This document shows positions 2,821 to 55,587 of a stretch of DNA of 64,000 bases, one piece after another. The notes beneath the pieces were generated by a model. The model was given only the letters and a program-made list of their open reading frames with translations. It was not told where the DNA came from and did no database searches. A program made the position numbers and the translations under genes. Position 1 is the stretch's first letter, and each line of letters begins with the position of its first letter. This DNA is from Escherichia coli (GTDB lineage Bacteria; Pseudomonadota; Gammaproteobacteria; Enterobacterales; Enterobacteriaceae), in NCBI RefSeq assembly GCF_050920415.1, contig NZ_CP169309.1. One strand, given 5' to 3'.

Positions 2821-2821
<1 letters not shown>

Positions 2822-3456
2822 TGTATCAGCCTGATTTTCCTCACGTACCTTTTCGTTTAGGACTGTACCCGGTAGTGGACAGCGTACAGTGGATCGAACG
2901 TCTGTTGGATGCAGGCGTGCGTACTCTCCAGCTGCGCATCAAAGATCGGCGCGATGAAGAGGTGGAAGCCGATGTCGTAGCAGCAATTGCGCTGGGCCGC
3001 CGCTATAACGCACGGCTGTTTATCAACGATTACTGGCAGCTGGCGATTAAGCATCAGGCGTATGGCGTCCATTTGGGGCAGGAAGATTTGCAATCTACCG
3101 ATCTCAATGCCATCCGCGCGGCAGGCCTGCGGCTGGGCGTTTCGACACATGATGATATGGAGATCGACGTCGCGTTGGCAGCACGTCCTTCTTATATCGC
3201 GCTAGGACATGTGTTCCCGACGCAAACCAAACAGATGCCTTCTGCACCGCAGGGGCTGGAACAGCTGGCACGGCATGTTGAGCGCCTGGCGGATTATCCC
3301 ACCGTGGCGATTGGCGGTATCAGTCTGCCGCGCGCGCCTGCGGTGATAGCAACGGGTGTCGGCAGTATCGCCGTTGTCAGCGCCATTACTCAAGCCGCAG
3401 ACTGGCGTTTGGCAACAGCACAGTTGCTGGAAATTGCAGGAGTTGGCGATGAATGA
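2821..3456 (+). CDS. thiE: Thiamine-phosphate synthase ThiE, 211 aa
   Basis: ORF track 2818..3456; start moved to ATG 2821, which overlaps the thiC stop (TGATG) and gives the canonical MYQPDFP N-terminus. Confidence 0.9.
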
Positions 3457-4204
3457 CCGTGACTTTATGCGTTATAGCCGCCAAATCCTGCTCGACGATA
3501 TCGCTCTTGACGGGCAGCAAAAACTGCTCGACAGCCAGGTGCTGATTATCGGTCTGGGTGGGTTGGGTACACCTGCTGCGCTATACCTGGCGGGAGCTGG
3601 TGTCGGGACGCTGGTACTGGCAGATGACGACGATGTGCATTTGAGCAATCTGCAACGACAAATCCTCTTTACGACTGAAGATATCGATCGCCCGAAATCG
3701 CAGGTCAGCCAACAGCGACTGACACAGTTGAATCCCGACATTCAACTGACAGCATTACAACAACGGTTAACGGGTAAGGCGTTAAAAGATGCGGTAGCAC
3801 GGGCCGATGTGGTACTCGACTGTACCGACAACATGGCGACTCGCCAGGAGATTAATACCGCCTGCGTAGCACTTAACACACCGCTTATCATCGCCAGCGC
3901 GGTCGGATTTGGTGGTCAGTTGATGGTGCTGACACCGCCCTGGGAACAGGGGTGTTACCGCTGCCTGTGGCCGGATAACCAGGAGCCAGAACGCAACTGC
4001 CGCACGGCGGGCGTGGTTGGCCCGGTGGTCGGGGTCATGGGCACGTTACAGGCACTGGAAGCAATTAAGCTATTGAGTGGTATAGAGACCCCTGCGGGAT
4101 ATCTTCGACTGTTTGACGGTAAATTAAACCAATGGCGCAACCTGGCGTTGCGCCGTGCCAGCAGTTGCCCAGTATGCGGAGGAAGCAATGCAGATCCTGT
4201 TTAA
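3449..4204 (+). CDS. thiF: ThiS adenylyltransferase ThiF, 251 aa
   Basis: ORF track 3356..4204 is N-terminally extended; known ThiF begins [12 protein letters not shown] at ATG 3449, overlapping the thiE stop. Confidence 0.9.
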
Positions 4205-4388
4205 CGATCAACCGATGCAGTGCGTCGCCGGACTAACTGTTCACGAACTGCTGGAGCAACTCGATCAACAACAAGCAGGTGCGGCACTGGCAATTAATCA
4301 GCAAATCGTCCCGCGGGAGCAATGGGCGCAACATATCGTGCAGGATGGCGACCAGATCCTGCTTTTTCAGGTTATTGCAGGGGGTTGA
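4188..4388 (+). CDS. thiS: Sulfur carrier protein ThiS, 66 aa, C-terminal GG
   Basis: ORF track 4155..4388; start set to MQILFND; ubiquitin-like fold ending in GG. Confidence 0.88.
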
Positions 4389-4389
4389 G

Positions 4390-5160
4390 ATGTTACGTAT
4401 TGCGGGCAAAACGTTTGATTCACATCTGTTTACCGGCACCGGGAAATTCGCCTCTTCACAATTGATGGTGGAGGCGATCCGCGCTTCCGGCAGCCAACTG
4501 GTGACGCTGGCGATGAAACGTGTCGACTTGCGCCAACACAACGATGCTATCCTCGATCCACTTATCGCGGCGGGTGTGACACTACTGCCAAATACTTCTG
4601 GGGCGAAAACTGCGGAAGAAGCCATTTTCGCCGCTCATCTGGCACGTGAAGCGTTAGGCACAAACTGGCTAAAATTAGAGATTCACCCTGACGCCCGCTG
4701 GCTGTTGCCCGATCCCATCGAAACCCTGAAAGCCGCCGAAATGTTGGTGCAACAGGGATTTGTCGTGCTGCCTTACTGCGGTGCCGATCCAGTGTTGTGC
4801 AAACGTCTGGAGGAAGTGGGCTGTGCAGCAGTAATGCCGCTCGGCGCACCAATTGGCTCTAATCAGGGACTGGAAACCCGCGCCATGCTGGAGATTATTA
4901 TCCAGCAAGCCACGGTTCCGGTGGTCGTTGATGCTGGCATTGGCGTTCCCAGCCATGCCGCGCAGGCGCTTGAAATGGGAGCCGATGCGGTGTTAGTGAA
5001 TACGGCGATTGCCGTCGCGGACGATCCCGTCAACATGGCGAAGGCATTTCGTCTGGCGGTAGACGCCGGCCTGCTGGCACGTCAGTCCGGGCCGGGCAGT
5101 CGCAGTCATTTTGCTCATGCCACTAGCCCGCTGACCGGATTTCTGGAGGCATCGGCATGA
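4390..5160 (+). CDS. thiG: Thiazole synthase ThiG, 256 aa
   Basis: ORF track 4279..5160 is extended; known start [11 protein letters not shown] at 4390, one nt after the thiS stop. Confidence 0.92.
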
Positions 5161-30572: not shown

Positions 30573-31430
30573 TCAGTCTAAAACTGCCAGTTTTTCGAGC
30601 GTTTCGAAGCCGTAGCGCTGTAAAACGGGCAATAATTGTTCAGCTTCTGGCGTCATTGCCATACAAAAGGCAATATTCGCATCGGCGGATTTTGCATCCG
30701 GGGCTTCATGTTCTAACAACCATGCCGTTCGGCGAGCAATCGCTGCGCCAGAATCCACCAGCCGTGTTCCCTCTGGCAGCACTTGTAACAGTTCTTCTTG
30801 TAGTAGAGGGAAGTGGGTACACCCCAGAACAACGGTATCTGGTGGCTCTTTCATTCTTAACCACGGGCGCAAGATACGCTTTAGTGCATCCAGAGAAACA
30901 TCTTCGCCATGCAGCTTCGCTTCAGCCAACTCAACCATCTCTGCCGAGCCCAGCATTTCTATCTGGCATTCATTAGCGAAACGCGCGATCAGCTCATGAG
31001 TATAAGAACGTTTAACTGTTCCGCGGGTTGCCAGTAATCCGACAATGCCATTAGCTGTCAGACGTGCCGCTGGCTTAATCGCCGGCACGACACCAACAAC
31101 CGGGAAGTCGAACTTTTCGCGTAATGCAGGAAGTGAAACGGTACTGGCGGTGTTGCAAGCGACCACTGCCAGCGCAAGGGGATAGCGTTCTTGCACTGCG
31201 GTGACAATTGCCACCACTCGCTCAACAATAAACTCTTCGCTTTTTTCGCCATACGGGAAAGCGACGTTATCGAAAGCATAAATGTAATGGAGATCCGGTA
31301 AGAGATGCCGGATCTCGTCATAGACCGACAACCCACCGACGCCGGAGTCAAACACCAGCACGGTGGGACGTGGTTCAGAAGGTGTAGCTGCCAGACAAGG
31401 TGTATTCCCGTCCTGCAGTTTGGTAGCCAT
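30573..31430 (-). CDS. murI: Glutamate racemase MurI, 285 aa
   Basis: ORF track 30573..31442; start set to MATKLQDGN; 5' end overlaps the btuB 3' end. Confidence 0.93.
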
Positions 31431-36068: not shown

Positions 36069-37469
36069 ATGCCACATTCCTACGATTACGATGCCATAGT
36101 AATAGGTTCCGGCCCCGGCGGCGAAGGCGCTGCAATGGGCCTGGTTAAGCAAGGTGCGCGCGTCGCAGTTATCGAGCGTTATCAAAATGTTGGCGGCGGT
36201 TGCACCCACTGGGGCACCATCCCGTCGAAAGCTCTCCGTCACGCCGTCAGCCGCATTATAGAATTCAATCAAAACCCACTTTACAGCGACCATTCGCGAC
36301 TGCTCCGCTCTTCTTTTGCCGATATCCTTAACCATGCCGATAACGTGATTAATCAACAAACGCGCATGCGTCAGGGATTTTACGAACGTAATCACTGTGA
36401 AATATTGCAGGGGAACGCTCGCTTTGTTGACGAGCATACGTTGGCGCTGGATTGCCCGGACGGCAGCGTCGAAACACTAACCGCTGAAAAATTTGTTATT
36501 GCCTGTGGTTCTCGCCCTTATCATCCAACAGATGTTGATTTCACCCATCCACGCATTTACGACAGCGACTCAATTCTTAGCATGCACCACGAACCGCGCC
36601 ATGTACTTATCTATGGTGCTGGAGTGATCGGCTGTGAATATGCGTCGATCTTCCGCGGTATGGATGTAAAAGTGGATCTGATCAACACCCGCGATCGTCT
36701 GCTGGCGTTTCTCGATCAGGAGATGTCAGACTCTCTCTCCTATCACTTCTGGAACAGTGGCGTAGTGATTCGTCACAACGAAGAGTACGAAAAGATCGAA
36801 GGCTGTGACGACGGTGTGATTATGCATCTGAAGTCGGGCAAAAAGCTGAAAGCCGACTGTCTTCTCTATGCCAACGGTCGTACCGGTAATACCGATTCGC
36901 TGGCGTTACAGAACATTGGGCTGGAAACTGACAGTCGTGGACAGCTGAAGGTCAACAGCATGTATCAGACCGCACAGCCGCACGTTTACGCGGTGGGCGA
37001 CGTGATTGGTTATCCGAGCCTGGCGTCGGCAGCCTATGACCAGGGGCGCATTGCCGCGCAGGCGCTGGTGAAAGGTGAAGCCACCGCACATCTGATTGAA
37101 GATATCCCTACCGGCATTTACACCATTCCGGAAATCAGCTCTGTAGGCAAAACCGAACAGCAGCTGACCGCGATGAAAGTGCCGTATGAAGTGGGCCGCG
37201 CCCAGTTTAAACATCTGGCACGTGCACAAATCGTTGGCATGAACGTGGGTACGCTGAAAATTTTGTTCCATCGGGAAACAAAAGAGATTCTGGGCATTCA
37301 CTGCTTTGGCGAACGCGCTGCCGAGATTATCCATATCGGGCAGGCGATAATGGAACAGAAAGGTGGCGGCAACACTATTGAGTACTTCGTCAACACCACC
37401 TTTAACTACCCGACGATGGCGGAAGCCTATCGGGTAGCCGCGTTAAACGGTTTAAACCGCCTGTTTTAA
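36069..37469 (+). CDS. sthA: Soluble pyridine nucleotide transhydrogenase SthA (UdhA), 466 aa
   Basis: ORF track; FAD-binding GSGPGG motif. Confidence 0.95.
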
Positions 37470-38620: not shown

Positions 38621-39904
38621 TTACTCAATCCGATCTTTGACAATAAAGAAGTAACACAGCGCCCCGGTGAACGTCACACAGGCCGCGATAACCAGCGCCA
38701 GATTAAACGAGTGCGTGGTATCCACTACCCAACCGGTTACGATCGGAGCAAAGGAAGCAAAAACAAAACTGCCAAAGTTTTGAATCCCGGCGATGGAAGC
38801 CACTTTTGTTTCTGACACCATCACCTGCACCAGTCCCCATGCAGATGTTCCCGCGAAATGCACGCAGAACAGCGCCATTGAGATAAACGCTACAGCCTGG
38901 GCTGGCGAGGAGGATTGCACGACCAGCAACGTGCCTAATGCCGACATCATCAAACCGCAAACAATAGCCGTTTTACGCGTCTTCGCCAGGTCGTAGCCTT
39001 TTTTCGCCAGCCGATCGACAACAATACCGTTAACCCACATCCCGACCGCCGCCGCGAGGAAAGGAATCGCCGCCACCCAACCGGTTTTCGCCAGACTGAA
39101 GCCTTGCTCGGCTTGTAAATAACCGGGTAACCACGCGATGTAGAGCCAACCGGTATAATTGACGCCAGAGAAACCTAAAATCATCCCCCAGGTTGTCCGA
39201 TGCTTAAACAGCGCCAGCCACTCGCTAAATTGTAATTGTGGACGCGGTTTAACCGGCGCGGAGAGATAGGTCCGTTCTTCGTCGGTCAGGACAAACTGCG
39301 CCCGGTTGCGATACCACGCGTACCAACAGATCCCAACCAGAATCCCCGCCACGCCGATGATGACGAACATTGCCCGCCAGCCCCATGCCAGCTGCATCAA
39401 TACAAGAGCAGGAGGCGCAATAGCCTGACCGATAACGGTAGATGAGTTAAAAATCCCCAGCGCCGTGCCGCGTTCTTTTTGCGCATACCAGTCGGTGATC
39501 GACTTTACTCCCGCAGGCATAAATGGCGCTTCGCCAATACCCAGACCGATACGCATTAAAATAAAGTGGCTAAAAGAATTAACCATTCCTGTTAATGCCT
39601 GCATTAATGACCAGAATATTAAGCCTGCGCCTAAAACTATTCGTGGGCCAAAGCGGTCTAGCAAAATACCGGAAGGGAGTTGTGAAAAACCATAAGACAG
39701 AGAAAATGCAGAAAGCAAAACGCCAAATTCTGTCGCCGATAATCCTAACTCGCCACGAATCGCTTCGCCTGCCACGCTCAATGACGAACGGTCGAGGAAA
39801 TTAACGATCCCCGCCATAAATAATAAAACCAGCGTTACTGTCTGAATACGACGAATCCGTTGCGGTTTATTACCCGCAACACTGGTTGACACATCAACGT
39901 CCAT
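38621..39904 (-). CDS. MFS transporter, anion:cation symporter (ACS) family; putative sugar-acid (hexonate/hexuronate-type) permease, 427 aa
   Basis: ORF track; 12-TM hydrophobicity pattern; N-terminal NFLDR motif and overall similarity to DgoT/ExuT/GudP-type permeases; not at this locus in K-12 as I recall it. Confidence 0.8.
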   Translation of the reverse strand: MDVDVSTSVAGNKPQRIRRIQTVTLVLLFMAGIVNFLDRSSLSVAGEAIRGELGLSATEFGVLLSAFSLSYGFSQLPSGILLDRFGPRIVLGAGLIFWSLMQALTGMVNSFSHFILMRIGLGIGEAPFMPAGVKSITDWYAQKERGTALGIFNSSTVIGQAIAPPALVLMQLAWGWRAMFVIIGVAGILVGICWYAWYRNRAQFVLTDEERTYLSAPVKPRPQLQFSEWLALFKHRTTWGMILGFSGVNYTGWLYIAWLPGYLQAEQGFSLAKTGWVAAIPFLAAAVGMWVNGIVVDRLAKKGYDLAKTRKTAIVCGLMMSALGTLLVVQSSSPAQAVAFISMALFCVHFAGTSAWGLVQVMVSETKVASIAGIQNFGSFVFASFAPIVTGWVVDTTHSFNLALVIAACVTFTGALCYFFIVKDRIE

Positions 39905-39970
39905 TTTTAGCTCCTTGAGCGGAATTAATCGATTTGCTGACTATTCAGAAAATAATTAAGCGAACCGTTA

Positions 39971-41185
39971 TTACCAGTTCCACAATGTGCCATCTTCCAG
40001 TCGTGCGACGGGGAGATACGCCGGGTCATACGGATATTTCGCCGCCAGTTTCTCATCGAAAGAAATACCCAGCCCCGGTTCATCGCCTGGGTGCATATAA
40101 CCTTCATCGAAGCGCCAGCTGTGCGGGAAGACTTCAAGCATTTGTTCGGAATAGCCCATGTACTCCTGAACGCCAAAGTTTGGCACCCAGAGGTCAAAAT
40201 GCAGCGCCGCCGCATGACAAACAGGCGATAAATCTGAAGGGCCATGCGAACCGGTACGTACCTGATAAAGCGATGCAAAATCGGCAATCCGTCGCATCCC
40301 GGTAATGCCGCCTGCATGGGTAATCGTCGTGCGAATATAGTCAATCAGCTGCTCTTCGATTAACTGCTTGCAGTCCCAGATACTGTTAAACACTTCACCG
40401 ACCGCAATCGGCGTCACAGTATGCTGGCGAATCAGACGAAAACATTCCTGGTTCTCGGCAGGCGTCGGATCTTCCATCCAGAACAGGCGGTAATCCTCAA
40501 TGCTCTTCCCAAAGCGCGCCGCTTCGATAGGAGTCAGGCGATGGTGCATGTCATGCAACAGATGTTCGTTAAAACCGAACTTATTACGCACCGCTTCAAA
40601 TAACTTCGGTGTAAAATCGAGATACTTTTCTGAAGACCACAACTGCTCTTCCGGCCACAGGCCTTTGGTTGCCGGTTCATACGCCAGTCCTTTGCCCTTC
40701 GCCAGGCCATAAGTGGTTTGCATACCCGGTACACCGCACTGCACACGAATCGCCTTAAAGCCCATCAGCTGGTGCTTTGCATAGTCTTCAAGGACTTCAT
40801 CAATCGTGCGCCCGGTGGTGTGGCAATAAACCATCACGCCTTCACGAGAAGCCCCACCAAGCAGTTGATACAATGGCATATTTGCCGCTTTGGCTTTGAT
40901 ATCCCACAACGCCATATCAATGGCAGAAATGGCCGACATCGTGACGGGGCCACGTCGCCAGTAAGCACCTTTATAAAAGAATTGCCAGATATCTTCGATA
41001 CGGCTGGCATCGCGGCCAATTAATTGTGGACAAAGATGATCTTTCAGATAAGAAGCGACCGACAATTCGCGACCATTTAATGTGGCATCTCCCAATCCAC
41101 AAAGTCCGCTTGCAGTGGTTATTTTAAGCGTAACGAAATTACGTCTTGGGCAAGTAACAAAAACATCTGCAGCAATAATTTTCAT
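39971..41185 (-). CDS. Enolase-superfamily dehydratase, D-mannonate dehydratase (ManD)/RspA subgroup, 404 aa
   Basis: ORF track 39971..41245; start moved to ATG at 41185-41183 ([13 protein letters not shown]), preceded by RBS CAGGAG; hallmark RspA/ManD blocks [54 protein letters not shown]. Confidence 0.85.
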
Positions 41186-49332: not shown

Positions 49333-51066
49333 ATGCATTCCACAGAAGTCCAGGCTAAACCTCTTTTTAGCTGGAAAGCCCTGGGTTGGGCACTGCTCTA
49401 CTTTTGGTTTTTCTCTACTCTGCTACAGGCCATTATTTACATCAGTGGTTATAGTGGCACTAACGGCATTCGCGACTCGCTGTTATTCAGTTCGCTGTGG
49501 ATGATCCCGGTATTCCTCTTTCCGAAGCGGATTAAAATTATTGCCGCAGTAATCGGCGTGGTGCTATGGGCGGCCTCTCTGGCGGCGCTGTGCTACTACG
49601 TCATCTACGGTCAGGAGTTCTCGCAGAGCGTTCTGTTTGTGATGTTCGAAACCAACACCAACGAAGCCAGCGAGTATTTAAGCCAGTATTTCAGCCTGAA
49701 AATTGTGCTTATCGCGCTGGCCTATACGGCGGTGGCAGTTCTGCTGTGGACACGCCTGCGCCCGGTCTATATTCCAAAGCCGTGGCGTTATGTTGTCTCT
49801 TTTGCCCTGCTTTATGGCTTGATTCTGCATCCGATCGCCATGAATACGTTTATCAAAAACAAGCCGTTTGAGAAAACGTTGGATAACCTGGCATCGCGTA
49901 TGGAGCCTGCCGCACCGTGGCAATTCCTGACCGGCTATTATCAGTATCGTCAGCAACTAAACTCGCTAACAAAGCTACTGAATGAAAATAATGCCTTGCC
50001 GCCGCTGGCTAATTTCAAAGATGAATCGGGTAACGAACCGCGCACCTTAGTGCTGGTGATTGGCGAGTCGACCCAGCGTGGACGCATGAGTCTGTACGGT
50101 TATCCGCGTGAAACCACGCCGGAGCTGGATGCGCTGCATAAAACCGATCCGAATCTGACCGTGTTTAATAACGTGGTGACGTCTCGTCCGTACACCATTG
50201 AAATCCTGCAACAGGCGCTGACTTTTGCCAATGAAAAGAACCCGGATCTGTATCTGACGCAGCCGTCGCTGATGAACATGATGAAACAGGCGGGTTATAA
50301 AACCTTCTGGATCACCAACCAGCAAACGATGACCGCCCGCAATACCATGCTGACGGTATTTTCGCGCCAGACCGACAAGCAGTACTACATGAACCAGCAA
50401 CGTACGCAGAGTGCGCGTGAATACGACACCAACGTGCTGAAGCCGTTCCAGGAAGTGCTGAATGACCCTGCGCCGAAGAAACTGATCATCGTTCATCTGC
50501 TGGGTACGCATATCAAATACAAATACCGCTACCCGGAAAATCAGGGCAAGTTTGATGGCAATACCGATCATGTTCCGCCGGGACTAAGCGCAGAAGAGCT
50601 GGAGTCATATAACGATTATGATAACGCTAACCTGTATAACGATCATGTGGTTGCCAGCCTGATTAAAGACTTTAAAGCAGCAGACCCGAACGGTTTCCTG
50701 GTTTACTTCTCTGACCACGGTGAAGAGGTTTACGACACGCCGCCGCACAAAACTCAGGGGCGTAATGAGGACAACCCGACGCGTCATATGTACACCATTC
50801 CGTTCCTGCTGTGGACGTCAGAAAAATGGCAAGCGACTCATCCGCGTGATTTCTCGCAGGATGTTGATCGTAAATACAGCCTGGCGGAACTGATCCACAC
50901 CTGGTCAGATTTGGCGGGCTTATCTTACGACGGTTACGATCCAACCCGTTCAGTGGTGAATCCGCAGTTCAAAGAAACTACCCGCTGGATTGGTAACCCG
51001 TACAAGAAAAACGCGCTGATCGATTACGACACTCTGCCGTATGGCGATCAGGTGGGTAATCAGTAA
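49333..51066 (+). CDS. eptC: Phosphoethanolamine transferase EptC (YijP), 577 aa
   Basis: ORF track; N-terminal multi-TM domain plus periplasmic sulfatase-like domain; matches YijP. Confidence 0.92.
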   Translation: MHSTEVQAKPLFSWKALGWALLYFWFFSTLLQAIIYISGYSGTNGIRDSLLFSSLWMIPVFLFPKRIKIIAAVIGVVLWAASLAALCYYVIYGQEFSQSVLFVMFETNTNEASEYLSQYFSLKIVLIALAYTAVAVLLWTRLRPVYIPKPWRYVVSFALLYGLILHPIAMNTFIKNKPFEKTLDNLASRMEPAAPWQFLTGYYQYRQQLNSLTKLLNENNALPPLANFKDESGNEPRTLVLVIGESTQRGRMSLYGYPRETTPELDALHKTDPNLTVFNNVVTSRPYTIEILQQALTFANEKNPDLYLTQPSLMNMMKQAGYKTFWITNQQTMTARNTMLTVFSRQTDKQYYMNQQRTQSAREYDTNVLKPFQEVLNDPAPKKLIIVHLLGTHIKYKYRYPENQGKFDGNTDHVPPGLSAEELESYNDYDNANLYNDHVVASLIKDFKAADPNGFLVYFSDHGEEVYDTPPHKTQGRNEDNPTRHMYTIPFLLWTSEKWQATHPRDFSQDVDRKYSLAELIHTWSDLAGLSYDGYDPTRSVVNPQFKETTRWIGNPYKKNALIDYDTLPYGDQVGNQ

Positions 51067-51214
51067 ATGACCTTTGTATCGCGTCTGGCACTATTTGCCG
51101 GATGCGATACTGGCACAATGTTTACATCGAACTCCCATCAGGCCACACTTTTCAGGTGGCCTTTTTTCATAATGCCAGTTACTGTTTTCCCGTCTATGTA
51201 CCTAAGGGAATAAC

Positions 51215-52066
51215 ATGTATCACGACGTCAGCTATCTGCTCTCCCGCCTGATCAACGGCCCGCTGTCGCTGCGCCAGATTTACTTTGCCAGCAGCAACGG
51301 TCCGGCGCCCGATCTTGCGTATCAGGTCGATTTTCCACGGCTGGAAATAGTGCTGGAAGGTGAATTTGTTGATACCGGCGCTGGCGCAACGTTAGTTCCC
51401 GGCGATGTGCTGTACGTTCCCGCTGGCGGCTGGAATTTCCCACAATGGCAAGCCCCCGCGACCACCTTTAGCGTGCTGTTTGGCAAACAGCAACTCGGTT
51501 TCAGCGTCGTGCAATGGGATGGCAAACAGTATCAAAATCTGGCGAAGCAACACGTCGCCCGACGCGGCCCGCGCATTGGTTCTTTTCTGCTACAAACGCT
51601 CAATGAAATGCAAATGCAGCCACAGGAGCAGCAAACGGCAAGGCTTATCGTCGCCAGCCTGCTTAGCCACTGCCGCGATTTGCTTGGCAGCCAAATCCAG
51701 ACCGCCTCACGCAGCCAGGCACTATTCGAAGCTATTCGCGATTATATCGACGAACGCTATGCCTCCGCGCTTACCCGCGAATCTGTCGCACAGGCGTTCT
51801 ATATTTCGCCAAATTACCTCTCGCACCTGTTTCAAAAAACGGGGGCCATTGGTTTTAACGAATACCTGAATCACACGCGACTGGAACACGCTAAGACGTT
51901 ATTGAAAGGCTATGACCTGAAGGTAAAAGAAGTGGCGCACGCCTGCGGCTTTGTTGACAGCAACTACTTCTGCCGTCTGTTTCGTAAAAACACCGAACGC
52001 TCGCCGTCGGAATATCGTCGGCAATACCATAGCCAACTGACAGAAAAATCGACTACTCCAGAATAA
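51215..52066 (+). CDS. yijO: AraC/XylS-family transcriptional regulator YijO, 283 aa
   Basis: ORF track; C-terminal AraC-type HTH. Confidence 0.9.
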   Translation: MYHDVSYLLSRLINGPLSLRQIYFASSNGPAPDLAYQVDFPRLEIVLEGEFVDTGAGATLVPGDVLYVPAGGWNFPQWQAPATTFSVLFGKQQLGFSVVQWDGKQYQNLAKQHVARRGPRIGSFLLQTLNEMQMQPQEQQTARLIVASLLSHCRDLLGSQIQTASRSQALFEAIRDYIDERYASALTRESVAQAFYISPNYLSHLFQKTGAIGFNEYLNHTRLEHAKTLLKGYDLKVKEVAHACGFVDSNYFCRLFRKNTERSPSEYRRQYHSQLTEKSTTPE

Positions 52067-52394
52067 GATGGGTTTGCTGCGGCGCAGAAAGCACTTTGCG
52101 CACCGCGCTCATTACCCGCTGCGGCTCACGCAGGAATGCGTAGATGCTGCATTGCACATAGCGGCAATGTTCAAATCGCTCGGCACCGGCAAGCTCGATA
52201 TCCGTAATTAACAGCGCAACATCCGCCCGACGGATATCCTCGTCCGCTAAACGATTCTCCGTCCCCAGCGCGCCCTGAGTTTCAATGCTGACGCCCCACT
52301 TCTCTAACTGGCACAACTTTTCCAGCCGTTCCGCCGCCATATAAGTATGCGCCACGCCACTGACGCAGGCGGTTACTGCCACCAGGTATGCCAT
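52053..52394 (-). CDS. frwD: PTS fructose-like EIIB component FrwD, 113 aa
   Basis: ORF track 52053..52481 is extended; start set to MAYLVAVTACVSGVAHTYMAAE (active-site Cys); 14 nt convergent overlap with yijO. Confidence 0.88.
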   Translation of the reverse strand: MAYLVAVTACVSGVAHTYMAAERLEKLCQLEKWGVSIETQGALGTENRLADEDIRRADVALLITDIELAGAERFEHCRYVQCSIYAFLREPQRVMSAVRKVLSAPQQTHLILE

Positions 52395-52395
52395 T

Positions 52396-53274
52396 TTAAC
52401 CTCCCACGGTAACCTGAAATCCGGCCCGTTCTGCCATGTCACGCATCGTTGCCACATCAGCTGACGACGGCGCAGCAACATCTTTCATCGACCATGTTTT
52501 CCCCAGCAGACGGTATTTCGGTTCGCCGTACTGATGAAACGGCAACAGATGGATCTGCCTGATATTCAGCGGGATCAGCACGTCCAGCGCCTGCTGCATA
52601 TTCTCCCGACTGAGCGTGAAACCTGGGATCAGCGGTAAACGCGGTATCACGTTGACACCCTCACTCACCAGCAAACGCAGGTTCTCCAGCACGCGCGGCA
52701 GGTTCATCTTCACCACATCCCGCGCCTGAGTTGCATCCATTATTTTTAAATCGAACAACACTTCATCGCACAATTTCGCCAGCGGTAACAGCTTGCTGGC
52801 TGGCGCGTCTCCGGCAGTTTCGATGGCGCATGACACGCCCCACAATCGCAGCCGTTGCAAAAAACGGGTAGCAAACTCCGCCTGCATTAGCACTTCACCG
52901 CCAGAAAGCGTGACGCCGCCGCCAGACGTGCGAAAGAAAATGTCATCTTTCATCACTTCCCGTTCCAGCGCGTCGAGGCTGATATCACGACCAATCCGTT
53001 CAAACGCGCCGGAGGGACATTCATCCGCATCGCGCAAACATTTCGCGCAGTGCAGACATTTCGCCTCTCTGCGTACCGTCTGGATTTTGCCGGAGATCGA
53101 CTCCGGATTAGCACACCACGGGCAAAGATGCGGACAGCCTTTAAAAAATACCACCGTACGAATGCCCTCGCCGTCATTCAGTGAATAACGCTGAATGTTG
53201 AAAATGCGCGCCACATCATCGCGGCGCGTTTCCACAACGTTACAGCTGATGCGCTGTCCGGCGGATGATGTCAT
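52396..53274 (-). CDS. pflC: Glycyl-radical enzyme activating protein PflC (radical SAM), 292 aa
   Basis: ORF track 52396..53301; start set to MTSSAGQRISCN; CPHLCPWC radical-SAM motif. Confidence 0.9.
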   Translation of the reverse strand: MTSSAGQRISCNVVETRRDDVARIFNIQRYSLNDGEGIRTVVFFKGCPHLCPWCANPESISGKIQTVRREAKCLHCAKCLRDADECPSGAFERIGRDISLDALEREVMKDDIFFRTSGGGVTLSGGEVLMQAEFATRFLQRLRLWGVSCAIETAGDAPASKLLPLAKLCDEVLFDLKIMDATQARDVVKMNLPRVLENLRLLVSEGVNVIPRLPLIPGFTLSRENMQQALDVLIPLNIRQIHLLPFHQYGEPKYRLLGKTWSMKDVAAPSSADVATMRDMAERAGFQVTVGG

Positions 53275-55537
53275 CCTGGATCTCCTTCGACAATTCGACA
53301 AAGAAGGCGCTGTATCCGGCTACGCGCACCACCAGCCCGGCATAGTCCTGTGGGCGCTGTTGGGCTTCCCGCAACGTGTCAGCGTTCACCACGTTAAACT
53401 GAATATGCTGTAACTTAAGCTGGGTAAATGCCCGTAAGAAGTCGGCTAGTTTGCGTAATCCCGCTTCACCTTCCAGGGTCGCCGGAGTGAATTTCACGTT
53501 CAGCAATGTACCGTTAGAAAGCAGCGTGTTATCGAGCTTGCTGACTGATTTCAGTACCGCCGTTGGTCCTTGTGCGTCCTGGCCCAGCATGGGTGACAAG
53601 CCTCCGTCTGCCAGTTGTTCCCCGGCAAAACGACCGTCTGGCGTCGCACCAACCACCGCTCCCAACGGGACATGAGCAGAAACGGTATACGATCCTGGCG
53701 TGAAGTAGCCACCGCGCGGGTTCTGGTAATTTTCCACTTCTTTGCAGTAATGACGCAGGAGTTCGGCGCTAATGTTATCCACCTCGTCGATATCGTTACC
53801 GTATTTCTCAAAGCGGTTAATTAAGCGAGCGCGGACTTTTTCGCCTTCTGGCGTTGCGAAGTTGGCTTTTAATACCGACAGCAATTCGTCAAAACTTAAA
53901 CGCTGTTGCTCAAAAACCATCCCTTTCAACGCATGGAGAGAATCGCTCAGGTTGGCGATACCGATCCCCTGTACGCCGGAGAAGTTATAACGCGCGCCGC
54001 CATCGGTAATATCGCGGCCATTTTCCAGACAATCGCTGATAAACGACGAGAGCAGCGGTACAGGAGCCCAGTCACGATGGCCGATATCACAAATATTGCT
54101 GCCTTCAACCATCAGGGTGATGTAGTGGCTGATCTTGACGCGGATCTGTTCCAGCAAACCTTCATAACTCAGCGCGGCATTGCCTTCATTTTCATGCAAG
54201 CAGATTTCCATCACTTTCAGCAGGTTAAACATCGCGATGTCATGCAAGCCGTAGGTTCTGCCAGGAATAGATAATTCCACGCAGCCCACTACGGAATAGT
54301 CGCGCGCATCTTCCAGCGAAACGCCACGGTTGAGGAACGCTGGCACCACCACTTCATCGTTAAAGATTTGCGGAATCCCCGTGCCGAGGCGGATGGTTTC
54401 TGCGGTTTTCATCAGGAAAGGCGTGTCGATCAAGGCGTTAGTGCGCACGCCGAGGTTCGGTTGCGGCAATTGCACGCTTTGATAAGCATCGAGACAGAGG
54501 AACGAAAGCACGTTCACTGCGCTACGTCCGTTCTCGGTTAACCCACCGAGCAGGGCGGTATAGCCGGTTGGGAAACCTGCGAAATAACGCGCGCTGCTGG
54601 TGGAGCGCAACAGCACGATGTCATTGCATTTCACCCATAAAGATTCGAGCAGTTCTTTCAGGAACGCCGGATCTTCGCCCTGGGTTAATGATGCCTGATA
54701 GAAAGGCAACATATACTGGTCGAAGCGCCCTAAAGACAGCGAGCTGGCGTTGGATTCGTATTGCAGAATGATGTTCATGTACCAGAACAACTGACACGCC
54801 TGCCAGAATGTCTGCGGCTTATGTTCGGCGTTATGGCGGGAGTTCTCCGCGATAGTCAGCAGTTCTTCGCGACGCTGGGCATCGGTGCAGTTTGCCGCCA
54901 TCGTTTCCGCCAGTTCGGCGTAACGCAAAATGTGTTTCTGCGAGGCTTCGAGCAATAACAGCGCAGCCTGATAAAAGTGATTCTCCGGCTGTTGCTGGCA
55001 ATGTTGCTGCATCTGCGCCACCAGCTCACCCAGCCCGTGATTCAGCAGGCGCGGGTAATCAATAATGATGTGCCCCTGGCCTTTATCTGTCTGGTTGATA
55101 CTGAAAATCTGCGTGCTGGTCGCGGCTTTTACTTCATCCGTCATCTGCCCGTTAATAAAATCTTTCATCGAGCGTTTTTCCCAGTATGGGAACAGCTCTT
55201 CGCGGTAGATACGTTTATCTTCTTCACTAATGGCGAAGCGGTCCTGCGGTCGCGTCGGAAATTGATCCAGCTCTTTCAGCAGCCAGTAAGGGTCCATTTC
55301 CGGCGACATAATCCCGGCGCGCGGTTTTACGGTACGGTTACCAGCAATCAGTTCTTCATCACGAATCGAAATTTCAACATGTTCAAGGATATACGCTGTT
55401 GCTTTCGCCCGGCGCAATATCACTGGATCGCCTTCGGTTTGCCGATGGCTGGCGGTATAAAGCAGCGCCCGCTCCAGCGAGATTTCACGGGTATTAGCAA
55501 ACAGTGCAGTTTTAAGGCGAGAGATACGATTCGTCAT
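53240..55537 (-). CDS. pflD: Pyruvate formate-lyase-like glycyl radical enzyme PflD, 765 aa
   Basis: ORF track; C-terminal glycyl-radical motif RVAGYSA; active-site region [13 protein letters not shown]. Confidence 0.93.
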   Translation of the reverse strand: MTNRISRLKTALFANTREISLERALLYTASHRQTEGDPVILRRAKATAYILEHVEISIRDEELIAGNRTVKPRAGIMSPEMDPYWLLKELDQFPTRPQDRFAISEEDKRIYREELFPYWEKRSMKDFINGQMTDEVKAATSTQIFSINQTDKGQGHIIIDYPRLLNHGLGELVAQMQQHCQQQPENHFYQAALLLLEASQKHILRYAELAETMAANCTDAQRREELLTIAENSRHNAEHKPQTFWQACQLFWYMNIILQYESNASSLSLGRFDQYMLPFYQASLTQGEDPAFLKELLESLWVKCNDIVLLRSTSSARYFAGFPTGYTALLGGLTENGRSAVNVLSFLCLDAYQSVQLPQPNLGVRTNALIDTPFLMKTAETIRLGTGIPQIFNDEVVVPAFLNRGVSLEDARDYSVVGCVELSIPGRTYGLHDIAMFNLLKVMEICLHENEGNAALSYEGLLEQIRVKISHYITLMVEGSNICDIGHRDWAPVPLLSSFISDCLENGRDITDGGARYNFSGVQGIGIANLSDSLHALKGMVFEQQRLSFDELLSVLKANFATPEGEKVRARLINRFEKYGNDIDEVDNISAELLRHYCKEVENYQNPRGGYFTPGSYTVSAHVPLGAVVGATPDGRFAGEQLADGGLSPMLGQDAQGPTAVLKSVSKLDNTLLSNGTLLNVKFTPATLEGEAGLRKLADFLRAFTQLKLQHIQFNVVNADTLREAQQRPQDYAGLVVRVAGYSAFFVELSKEIQDDIIRRTAHQL

Positions 55538-55587
55538 GAGGAACTCCTGTGGGGAAGCGAACCCGCCCTTGCGAGCGGGATAAGGAC

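Follow-up and report, generated by a model that had tools for sequence, protein, structure and literature searches.

A conserved 35-nt overlap supports the annotated start of pflC inside the 3′ end of pflD in Escherichia coli

In E. coli, the gene of the activating enzyme PflC is annotated with a start codon that lies within the coding region of pflD, the gene of its glycyl-radical enzyme partner. Is that start the true one and, if so, how is it used? The start needed testing because long same-strand overlaps in databases usually come from over-extended starts (PMC2478687). Since choosing the start codon also fixes the overlap, the correctness of the start, and not chance, is what has to be tested. 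The locus was analyzed in a stretch of 64,000 nt of E. coli DNA (the window, to which all coordinates refer unless another locus is named).

On the minus strand, pflD (53240..55537) is a 765-codon ORF, in translation as in the RefSeq annotation, with a TAA stop at 53242..53240. The 3′ end of the gene reads ...EIQDDIIRRTAHQL-TAA and the protein ends with ...RVAGYSAFFVELSKEIQDDIIRRTAHQL. The product is a glycyl-radical enzyme of the PFL2/glycerol-dehydratase family (TIGR01774; NF007437): the NCBIfam model NF007437 aligns with residues 1–765 of 765 (1717 bits, for a cut-off of 1109) and the RVxG[YF] motif occurs as RVAGYSAFF. The Pfam domains are PFL-like and Gly_radical (the latter at residues 645–747).

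The second gene, pflC (52396..53274, minus strand, stop codon included), encodes 292 aa from an ATG at 53274..53272, again in translation and in the RefSeq annotation. The N-terminus from that ATG is MTSSAGQRISC..., or MTSSAGQRISCNVVETRRDDVARIFNIQRYS... when continued. The product is the radical-SAM activating enzyme for pflD (NCBIfam NF007483). Residues 1–292 align with positions 1–292 of the equivalog NF007483 (627.5 bits, for a cut-off of 326), and the assignment to the PflC type (NF007483; subfamily TIGR02494 PFLE_PFLC) is borne out by the model, the cluster motif and the enzyme neighbor. The CX3CX2C radical-SAM motif is present near the N-terminus (GCPHLCPWC), and its cysteines, C47, C51, and C54, are invariant in the orthologue alignment. 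Pfam matches are Radical_SAM and Fer4_12; the PflA models TIGR02493 and NF008356 are also hit, with scores under their cut-offs. PflC orthologues have the same length of 292 aa in Citrobacter, Phytobacter, Kluyvera, and Pluralibacter, and 291–292 aa across many genera.

The function of PflD was long unknown (PMC5600444). According to the passage of PMC12441222 that cites Ma et al., PflD acts on 1,5-anhydromannitol-6-phosphate under anaerobic conditions in gut bacteria. By the role of its family and that part of the literature (PMC12441222), PflC would use S-adenosylmethionine to form the glycyl radical of PflD.

Over 6.1 kb spanning the locus, the sequence matches NZ_CP169399.1 at 100% identity and most other complete genomes at ∼97.5%. 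The frw-pfl segment at 51000..57100 has a 100% match in 1/5426 complete E. coli genomes (strain MFDS1022581); it is ∼97%–98% identical to the remaining E. coli genomes and looks unusually divergent for a core region.

The dual-coding overlap of pflD and pflC (53240..53274, minus strand) measures exactly 35 nt. It holds codons −11 to −1 of pflD with the stop codon, together with codons 1–11 of pflC and the first two bases of codon 12; relative to pflD, pflC is read in the +1 frame (one base downstream). The pflC ATG (53272..53274, minus strand) takes its first two bases from the end of a pflD Asp codon (GAT) and its third from the Asp codon that follows (GAC). A Shine-Dalgarno (SD) sequence, AAGGAG (53282..53287, minus strand), lies 7 nt 5′ of the ATG and is formed by Lys-Glu codons of pflD (AAG GAG). 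The RefSeq/PGAP annotation of NZ_CP169399.1, the sole 100%-identical genome, has the same pflD and pflC coordinates, and the 121-nt junction is present at an identity of at least 95% in 5416/5426 complete E. coli genomes. A consensus-match scan of 53150..53350 gave no promoter-like or terminator-like sites, and this is consistent with a single operon for the two same-strand genes.

For the comparison, 80 loci encoding relatives of PflC were sampled (one genome per species). The PflC relative is directly 3′ of its enzyme gene in the window and in 69/80 loci; the remaining 11/80 have no recognizable upstream enzyme gene, several because of a contig end or a frameshift. The statistics on starts rest on 51 loci, those from Proteobacteria in which the enzyme gene upstream is intact. 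In 49/51 of them, the ATG is formed from Asp-Asp codons GAT-GAC/T and the overlap is exactly 35 nt. The overlap-type start is seen in Enterobacterales, Vibrionales, Orbales, and Pasteurellales, as well as in one betaproteobacterium and one alphaproteobacterium. From the stop codon of the enzyme to the GIRT motif of the activase, the spacer takes 14 distinct lengths between 52 and 133 nt, all of them equal to 1 modulo 3, and the frame from the pflC ATG is kept in 51/51 loci. The N-terminal extension past the enzyme stop is free of in-frame stops in all 51 loci (0/51), whereas the other two frames are interrupted in 17 and 32 loci. Between the conserved ATG and the core, 13/51 loci offer no other ATG, GTG, or TTG (among them Pluralibacter, Citrobacter portucalensis, Yersinia pekkanenii, Raoultella, Cedecea, Serratia, Zophobihabitans, and Propionivibrio).

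Within the extension, E. coli has only two other in-frame candidates for a start, a GTG at codon 14 (53235..53233) and a GTG at codon 21 (53214..53212), the latter just 5′ of the conserved core ARIFNIQRYS, where the Firmicute homologues begin. The same codons are GTT, GTC, ATC, or ATT in other genera, so both GTGs, lacking conservation as starts, were rejected. In E. coli, a minor second isoform may nevertheless come from the in-frame GTG at codon 14 or 21. A TTG further upstream (53301, giving an ORF of 301 aa) was also rejected; it is without an SD and is just a Leu codon of conserved pflD sequence. The length shared with the orthologues and the conservation of the start across genera are the features by which Palleja et al. 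(2008; PMC2478687) recognize genuine long co-directional overlaps, and pflD/pflC displays both. In the supplementary data of INRI-seq (PMC9825163) and of TRAINSPOTTER (PMC13245402), neither pflC nor pflD occurs.

The choice of synonymous codons in pflD bears on the same question. Over the 51 proteobacterial loci, the pflD Asp codon whose last two bases become the AT of the ATG reads GAT 49 times and GAC twice, as against 28:20 and 14:10 for two other Asp codons of that alignment. In the codons that encode the SD, Lys is AAG 41 times and AAA 3 times, and Glu is GAG 44 times and GAA 7 times, while elsewhere Lys and Glu codons vary far more. The Fisher p-values, uncorrected for phylogeny, are 8e-7 for Asp and 1e-5 and 4e-5 for the other two codons. 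The pflD-synonymous sites under the ATG and the SD are nearly frozen, and both signals appear, from these sequences, to be under selection.

Within the overlap, almost all the variation falls at position 2 of the pflC codons, which is position 3 of the pflD codons, and therefore the PflD frame dominates. Residues 2–11 of PflC are passengers of the pflD sequence, with exchanges such as S/L, S/F, A/G/V, P/Q/L, and S/N. The part of the N-terminal extension outside pflD (53212..53239, minus strand) runs from the third base of codon 12 through codon 21. Its variation at codon positions 1, 2, and 3 is 0.34, 0.30, and 0.51, as against 0.07, 0.03, and 0.47 in the core; V13, E15, R17, and D19 are conserved. 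The pattern is that of a translated, weakly constrained peptide. In an AlphaFold model of PflC, built on a shallow alignment and with a mean pLDDT of 67, residues 1–16 have a pLDDT below 50 and the first strand begins at residue 21; the leader of PflC is probably disordered.

The annotated ATG at 53274 is thus strongly supported, on comparative grounds, as the true start of pflC. The initial annotation had placed it 35 nt inside the 3′ end of pflD, and this holds in the sequence, in RefSeq, and by conservation in 49/51 proteobacterial loci. It had taken MTSSAGQ... as the beginning of PflC, a choice that frame retention, the conserved ATG and the constraint on silent sites uphold across the proteobacterial loci. 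The overlap was already known, being part of the RefSeq annotations and of a curated family model; it is genuine and an ordinary operon architecture.

The −35 start is not universal, because loci of the Vibrio type have a second ATG and two species are without the −35 ATG. In the Vibrio-type loci, where the enzyme ends with H-E-L, the second ATG occurs in CATGAACTGTAA and would give an overlap of 11 nt. The −35 ATG is lost (GACGAC for GATGAC) in Vibrio hannami (locus L040, 3871..3945) and in a Hahella MAG (locus L050, 3937..4011); both retain only the second in-frame ATG inside CATGAACTGTAA/TGA and hence the 11-nt overlap. Other Vibrio loci contain both ATGs, with a weak SD before the first, and either start may serve in Vibrionales.

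In Firmicutes, the enzymes keep the C-terminus IQ[DN]DII..R.EH.., and the activase frame is closed by an upstream stop. The activase homologues begin only 3–5 residues before the IFNIQRYS core. In Clostridia, the activase start is 3′ of the enzyme stop and is preceded by an SD of its own, located in a spacer of ∼10–20 nt; in Erysipelotrichia, the junction is TAATG or ATGA, with an overlap of 1 or 4 nt. Because Firmicute activases start after the stop codon of the enzyme, the proteobacterial pflC start most likely arose, early in the lineage, by capture of an upstream start. The activase start would have shifted upstream to an ATG and an SD already spelled by conserved codons of the enzyme, and the shift would have added a leader of 13–40 residues to the activase.

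Fused PflD-PflC ORFs were observed in Kluyvera genomosp. 3 YDC799 (locus L062, ∼3900..4100) and in an E. coli protein of 322 aa with a Gly_radical domain (P0117). Programmed frameshifting was considered for these fusions and rejected, as they are single cases with the frameshift inside the RVAGY motif; they are most simply pseudogenes or errors of sequencing or assembly. A further protein of 402 aa (P0001) joins PflC to FrwD and is probably a pseudogene or an assembly error.

How is the start reached by ribosomes? In both the MFE and the centroid folds, a hairpin is predicted between CCUUCUUUG and CGAAGGAG (53282..53307, minus strand), with the pflC SD paired to Phe-Phe codons of pflD, and the AUG of pflC lies in a small second predicted hairpin (fold z-score −2.1). 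The SD hairpin is predicted in most Enterobacterales, with a local ΔG of ∼ −7 to −10 kcal/mol. In the alignment, 94% of cells are able to pair, and the covariation stays within the shuffle controls (33/500). The hairpin was dropped as a conserved RNA element, since its covariation is not above that of the shuffles and a slide by −3 gives an about equal score. Its arms are dictated by conserved amino acids of pflD. The predicted cost of unfolding positions −18 to +12 is 16.4 kcal/mol for pflC versus 7.1 for pflD; the predicted SD:anti-SD pairing is stronger for pflC (−8.8 kcal/mol) than for pflD (−6.9 kcal/mol).

Coupling of pflC to pflD translation by RNA unfolding is plausible, because the pflC SD and AUG are in a predicted structure that ribosomes translating pflD would open. 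Such coupling by unfolding is favored for large overlaps like that of MS2 (−50 nt; PMC12548453). The initial annotation had read translational coupling, together with low expression of the activase relative to the enzyme, from the overlap. To call coupling implied is too strong; it stands as a possibility that the single operon and the predicted closure of the SD and AUG favor, against a covariation that stays within controls and the decay of reinitiation with distance. The low expression does not follow from the overlap; the predicted SD pairing of pflC is the stronger one, and the overlap alone says nothing about the ratio of activase to enzyme.

The explanation that we favor, with a probability of about 0.85 as a whole, is that the ATG at 53274 is real, that initiation there is SD-directed and probably aided by the translation of pflD, and that the start was most likely captured upstream. 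The conserved C-terminal pflD codons Ser-Lys-Glu-Ile-Gln-Asp-Asp spell a near-consensus ribosome binding site (AAGGAG, 7 nt, ATG). Ribosomes would initiate at the pflC ATG in frame +1, and the first 11 residues that they make would be set by the sequence of pflD; a short variable linker, probably disordered, would then lead into the radical-SAM core from about residue 21. Initiation is most likely SD-directed, and probably depends in part on pflD-translating ribosomes that would open the structure around the SD and AUG. An annotation artefact, with the true start of PflC at one of the downstream GTG codons (53235 or 53214) and no real overlap, appears highly improbable: neither GTG is conserved, 13 genera are without any canonical alternative start, the frame is retained over the 14 spacer lengths with zero stops there and many in the other frames, the ATG and SD appear selected at pflD-synonymous sites, and the extension varies like a coding sequence. 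What speaks for an artefact is that long annotated overlaps are most often due to a downstream gene called too long at its 5′ end (PMC2478687), that the Firmicute homologues begin 3–5 residues before IFNIQRYS, that residues 1–16 are of low confidence in the model, and that a few JGI gene calls of 279 aa correspond to the codon-14 start.

With a real overlap, the ribosome that terminates on pflD could also back up by 35 nt, from 53240 to the pflC AUG, and reinitiate there, which would fix a low activase-to-enzyme ratio. The coat-lysis pair of phage fr is coupled at −38 nt by such a scanning mechanism (PMC12548453), and the pflC SD could capture a back-scanning ribosome; but in native pairs of E. 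coli termination-reinitiation falls steeply with the stop–start distance and ∼20 nt nearly abolishes it (PMC10666635), and a strong SD under selection points to initiation of the ordinary SD-directed kind, so that we regard reinitiation as unlikely. The overlap might also have no regulatory meaning, if pflC is initiated from its strong SD without help from pflD and the overlap is a neutral by-product of start-codon turnover. The stronger SD:anti-SD pairing of pflC, the insignificant covariation of a hairpin whose arms are anyway fixed by conserved pflD residues, and the variety of junctions in the family (spaced, −1, −4, −11, and −35) lend this some weight. It is made doubtful by the high predicted unfolding cost, by the SD-sequestering hairpin predicted in most Enterobacterales, and by the consideration that a 30S subunit at the site would share the mRNA with ribosomes on the last 12 codons of pflD, which should make complete independence physically unlikely. 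Equally tentative is the stronger proposal that selection fixed the overlap early in Proteobacteria as an expression device in which the conserved pflD codons double as ribosome binding site and SD-sequestering hairpin and the activase is tied to, and capped by, the translation of the enzyme. If so, few genuine co-directional overlaps of E. coli would be as long or as widely conserved, and this one would document the capture of a start codon from an ancestral non-overlapping junction.

Downstream, the junction of pflC and frwD (52392..52404, minus strand) consists of the TAA stop, a single base and the frwD ATG, and the frwD SD (GGAGG) is within the last two codons of pflC. It is a classic tight-coupling arrangement, directly downstream from the 35-nt overlap. 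The gene frwD (52053..52394, minus strand; PTS fructose-like IIB component) ends with a TAG stop, the reverse complement of 52053..52055. Its ORF can be extended to an ATG at 52481 (52053..52481, minus strand, 142 aa), and 86 nt would then be shared with pflC; the short FrwD of 113 aa is supported by PGAP and by NCBIfam NF007747 (residues 1–113 on positions 2–114 of 114). The yijO gene (51215..52066, plus strand, in RefSeq and in the sequence) ends with a TAA stop at 52064..52066. A convergent 3′ overlap of 14 nt between frwD and yijO (52053..52066), noted initially, is confirmed by the RefSeq coordinates and by both stop codons in the sequence. Upstream of pflD, a GC-rich stem–loop, CCCGCTCGCAAGGGCGGG (55562..55579, minus strand), occurs in the 50-nt spacer between frwB and pflD, just 5′ of the pflD SD (AGGAG); no T-run follows it and, therefore, it is not a typical terminator.

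Other junctions of the window are of various types. The genes sthA (plus strand) and oxyR (minus strand) overlap convergently by 18 nt in RefSeq (37452..37469), which resembles frwD/yijO. In the thi operon (2821..5160), the co-directional overlaps are 1 nt for thiC/thiE, 8 nt for thiE/thiF, 17 nt for thiF/thiS, and 4 nt for thiG/thiH, with a 1-nt gap between thiS and thiG. Between oxyR and argH (38621..41185, minus strand), a pseudogene of an MFS transporter (with an internal stop) and manD (D-mannonate dehydratase) are annotated. K-12 is not known to have this pair of genes at that place, and they may be a strain-variable insertion.

The result matters little beyond annotation quality and opens no long-standing question. 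It is of value to know that the pflD/pflC overlap is real and old because long same-strand overlaps are usually start-codon errors. The 292-aa PflC of the databases and of expression constructs is confirmed. Changes that are silent in pflD could separate the expression of the activase from that of the enzyme: GAT to GAC, which converts the pflC ATG to ACG, AAG GAG to AAA GAA, and TTC TTT to TTT TTC. Some relevance comes from the work cited in PMC12441222, which links PflD to the way in which gut bacteria metabolize 1,5-anhydromannitol-6-phosphate anaerobically.

Among known overlaps, the longest genuine co-directional one found by Palleja et al. (2008; PMC2478687) is holD/rimI, with 32 bp in E. 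coli. Like pflD/pflC, it is a same-strand overlap of ∼30 nt conserved in Enterobacteria, with the start and SD of the downstream gene inside the upstream coding sequence. In contrast, pflD/pflC is fixed at 35 nt, its products are an enzyme and a dedicated activase, and it reaches beyond Enterobacterales to Vibrio, Gilliamella, Necropsobacter, Propionivibrio, and Pseudovibrio. The coat-lysis junctions of phages (−38 nt in fr and −50 nt in MS2; PMC12548453) also have the downstream start tens of nucleotides before the upstream stop. In the phages, RNA structure occludes the region of the start, which folding predicts only tentatively for pflD/pflC, and the dependence on upstream translation is experimental, whereas pflD/pflC is known from sequence and predicted folds; the phage lysis starts are without a strong SD, whereas pflC has the consensus AAGGAG. 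In the same window, btuB and murI are annotated as a co-directional pair in which murI begins inside the 3′ end of btuB (31375..31430, minus strand; murI ATG at 31430). That overlap differs by its 56 nt, by a weak SD-like sequence (gagacagtctATG) and by the functionally unrelated genes. In pflB/pflA, the archetypal pair of this kind in E. coli, the two genes lie apart and pflA is transcribed from a promoter of its own, and PflA has neither the N-terminal extension nor the additional Cys-rich insert of PflC-type activases; what the pair shares with pflD/pflC is a glycyl-radical enzyme with its radical-SAM activase, both of the same protein families.
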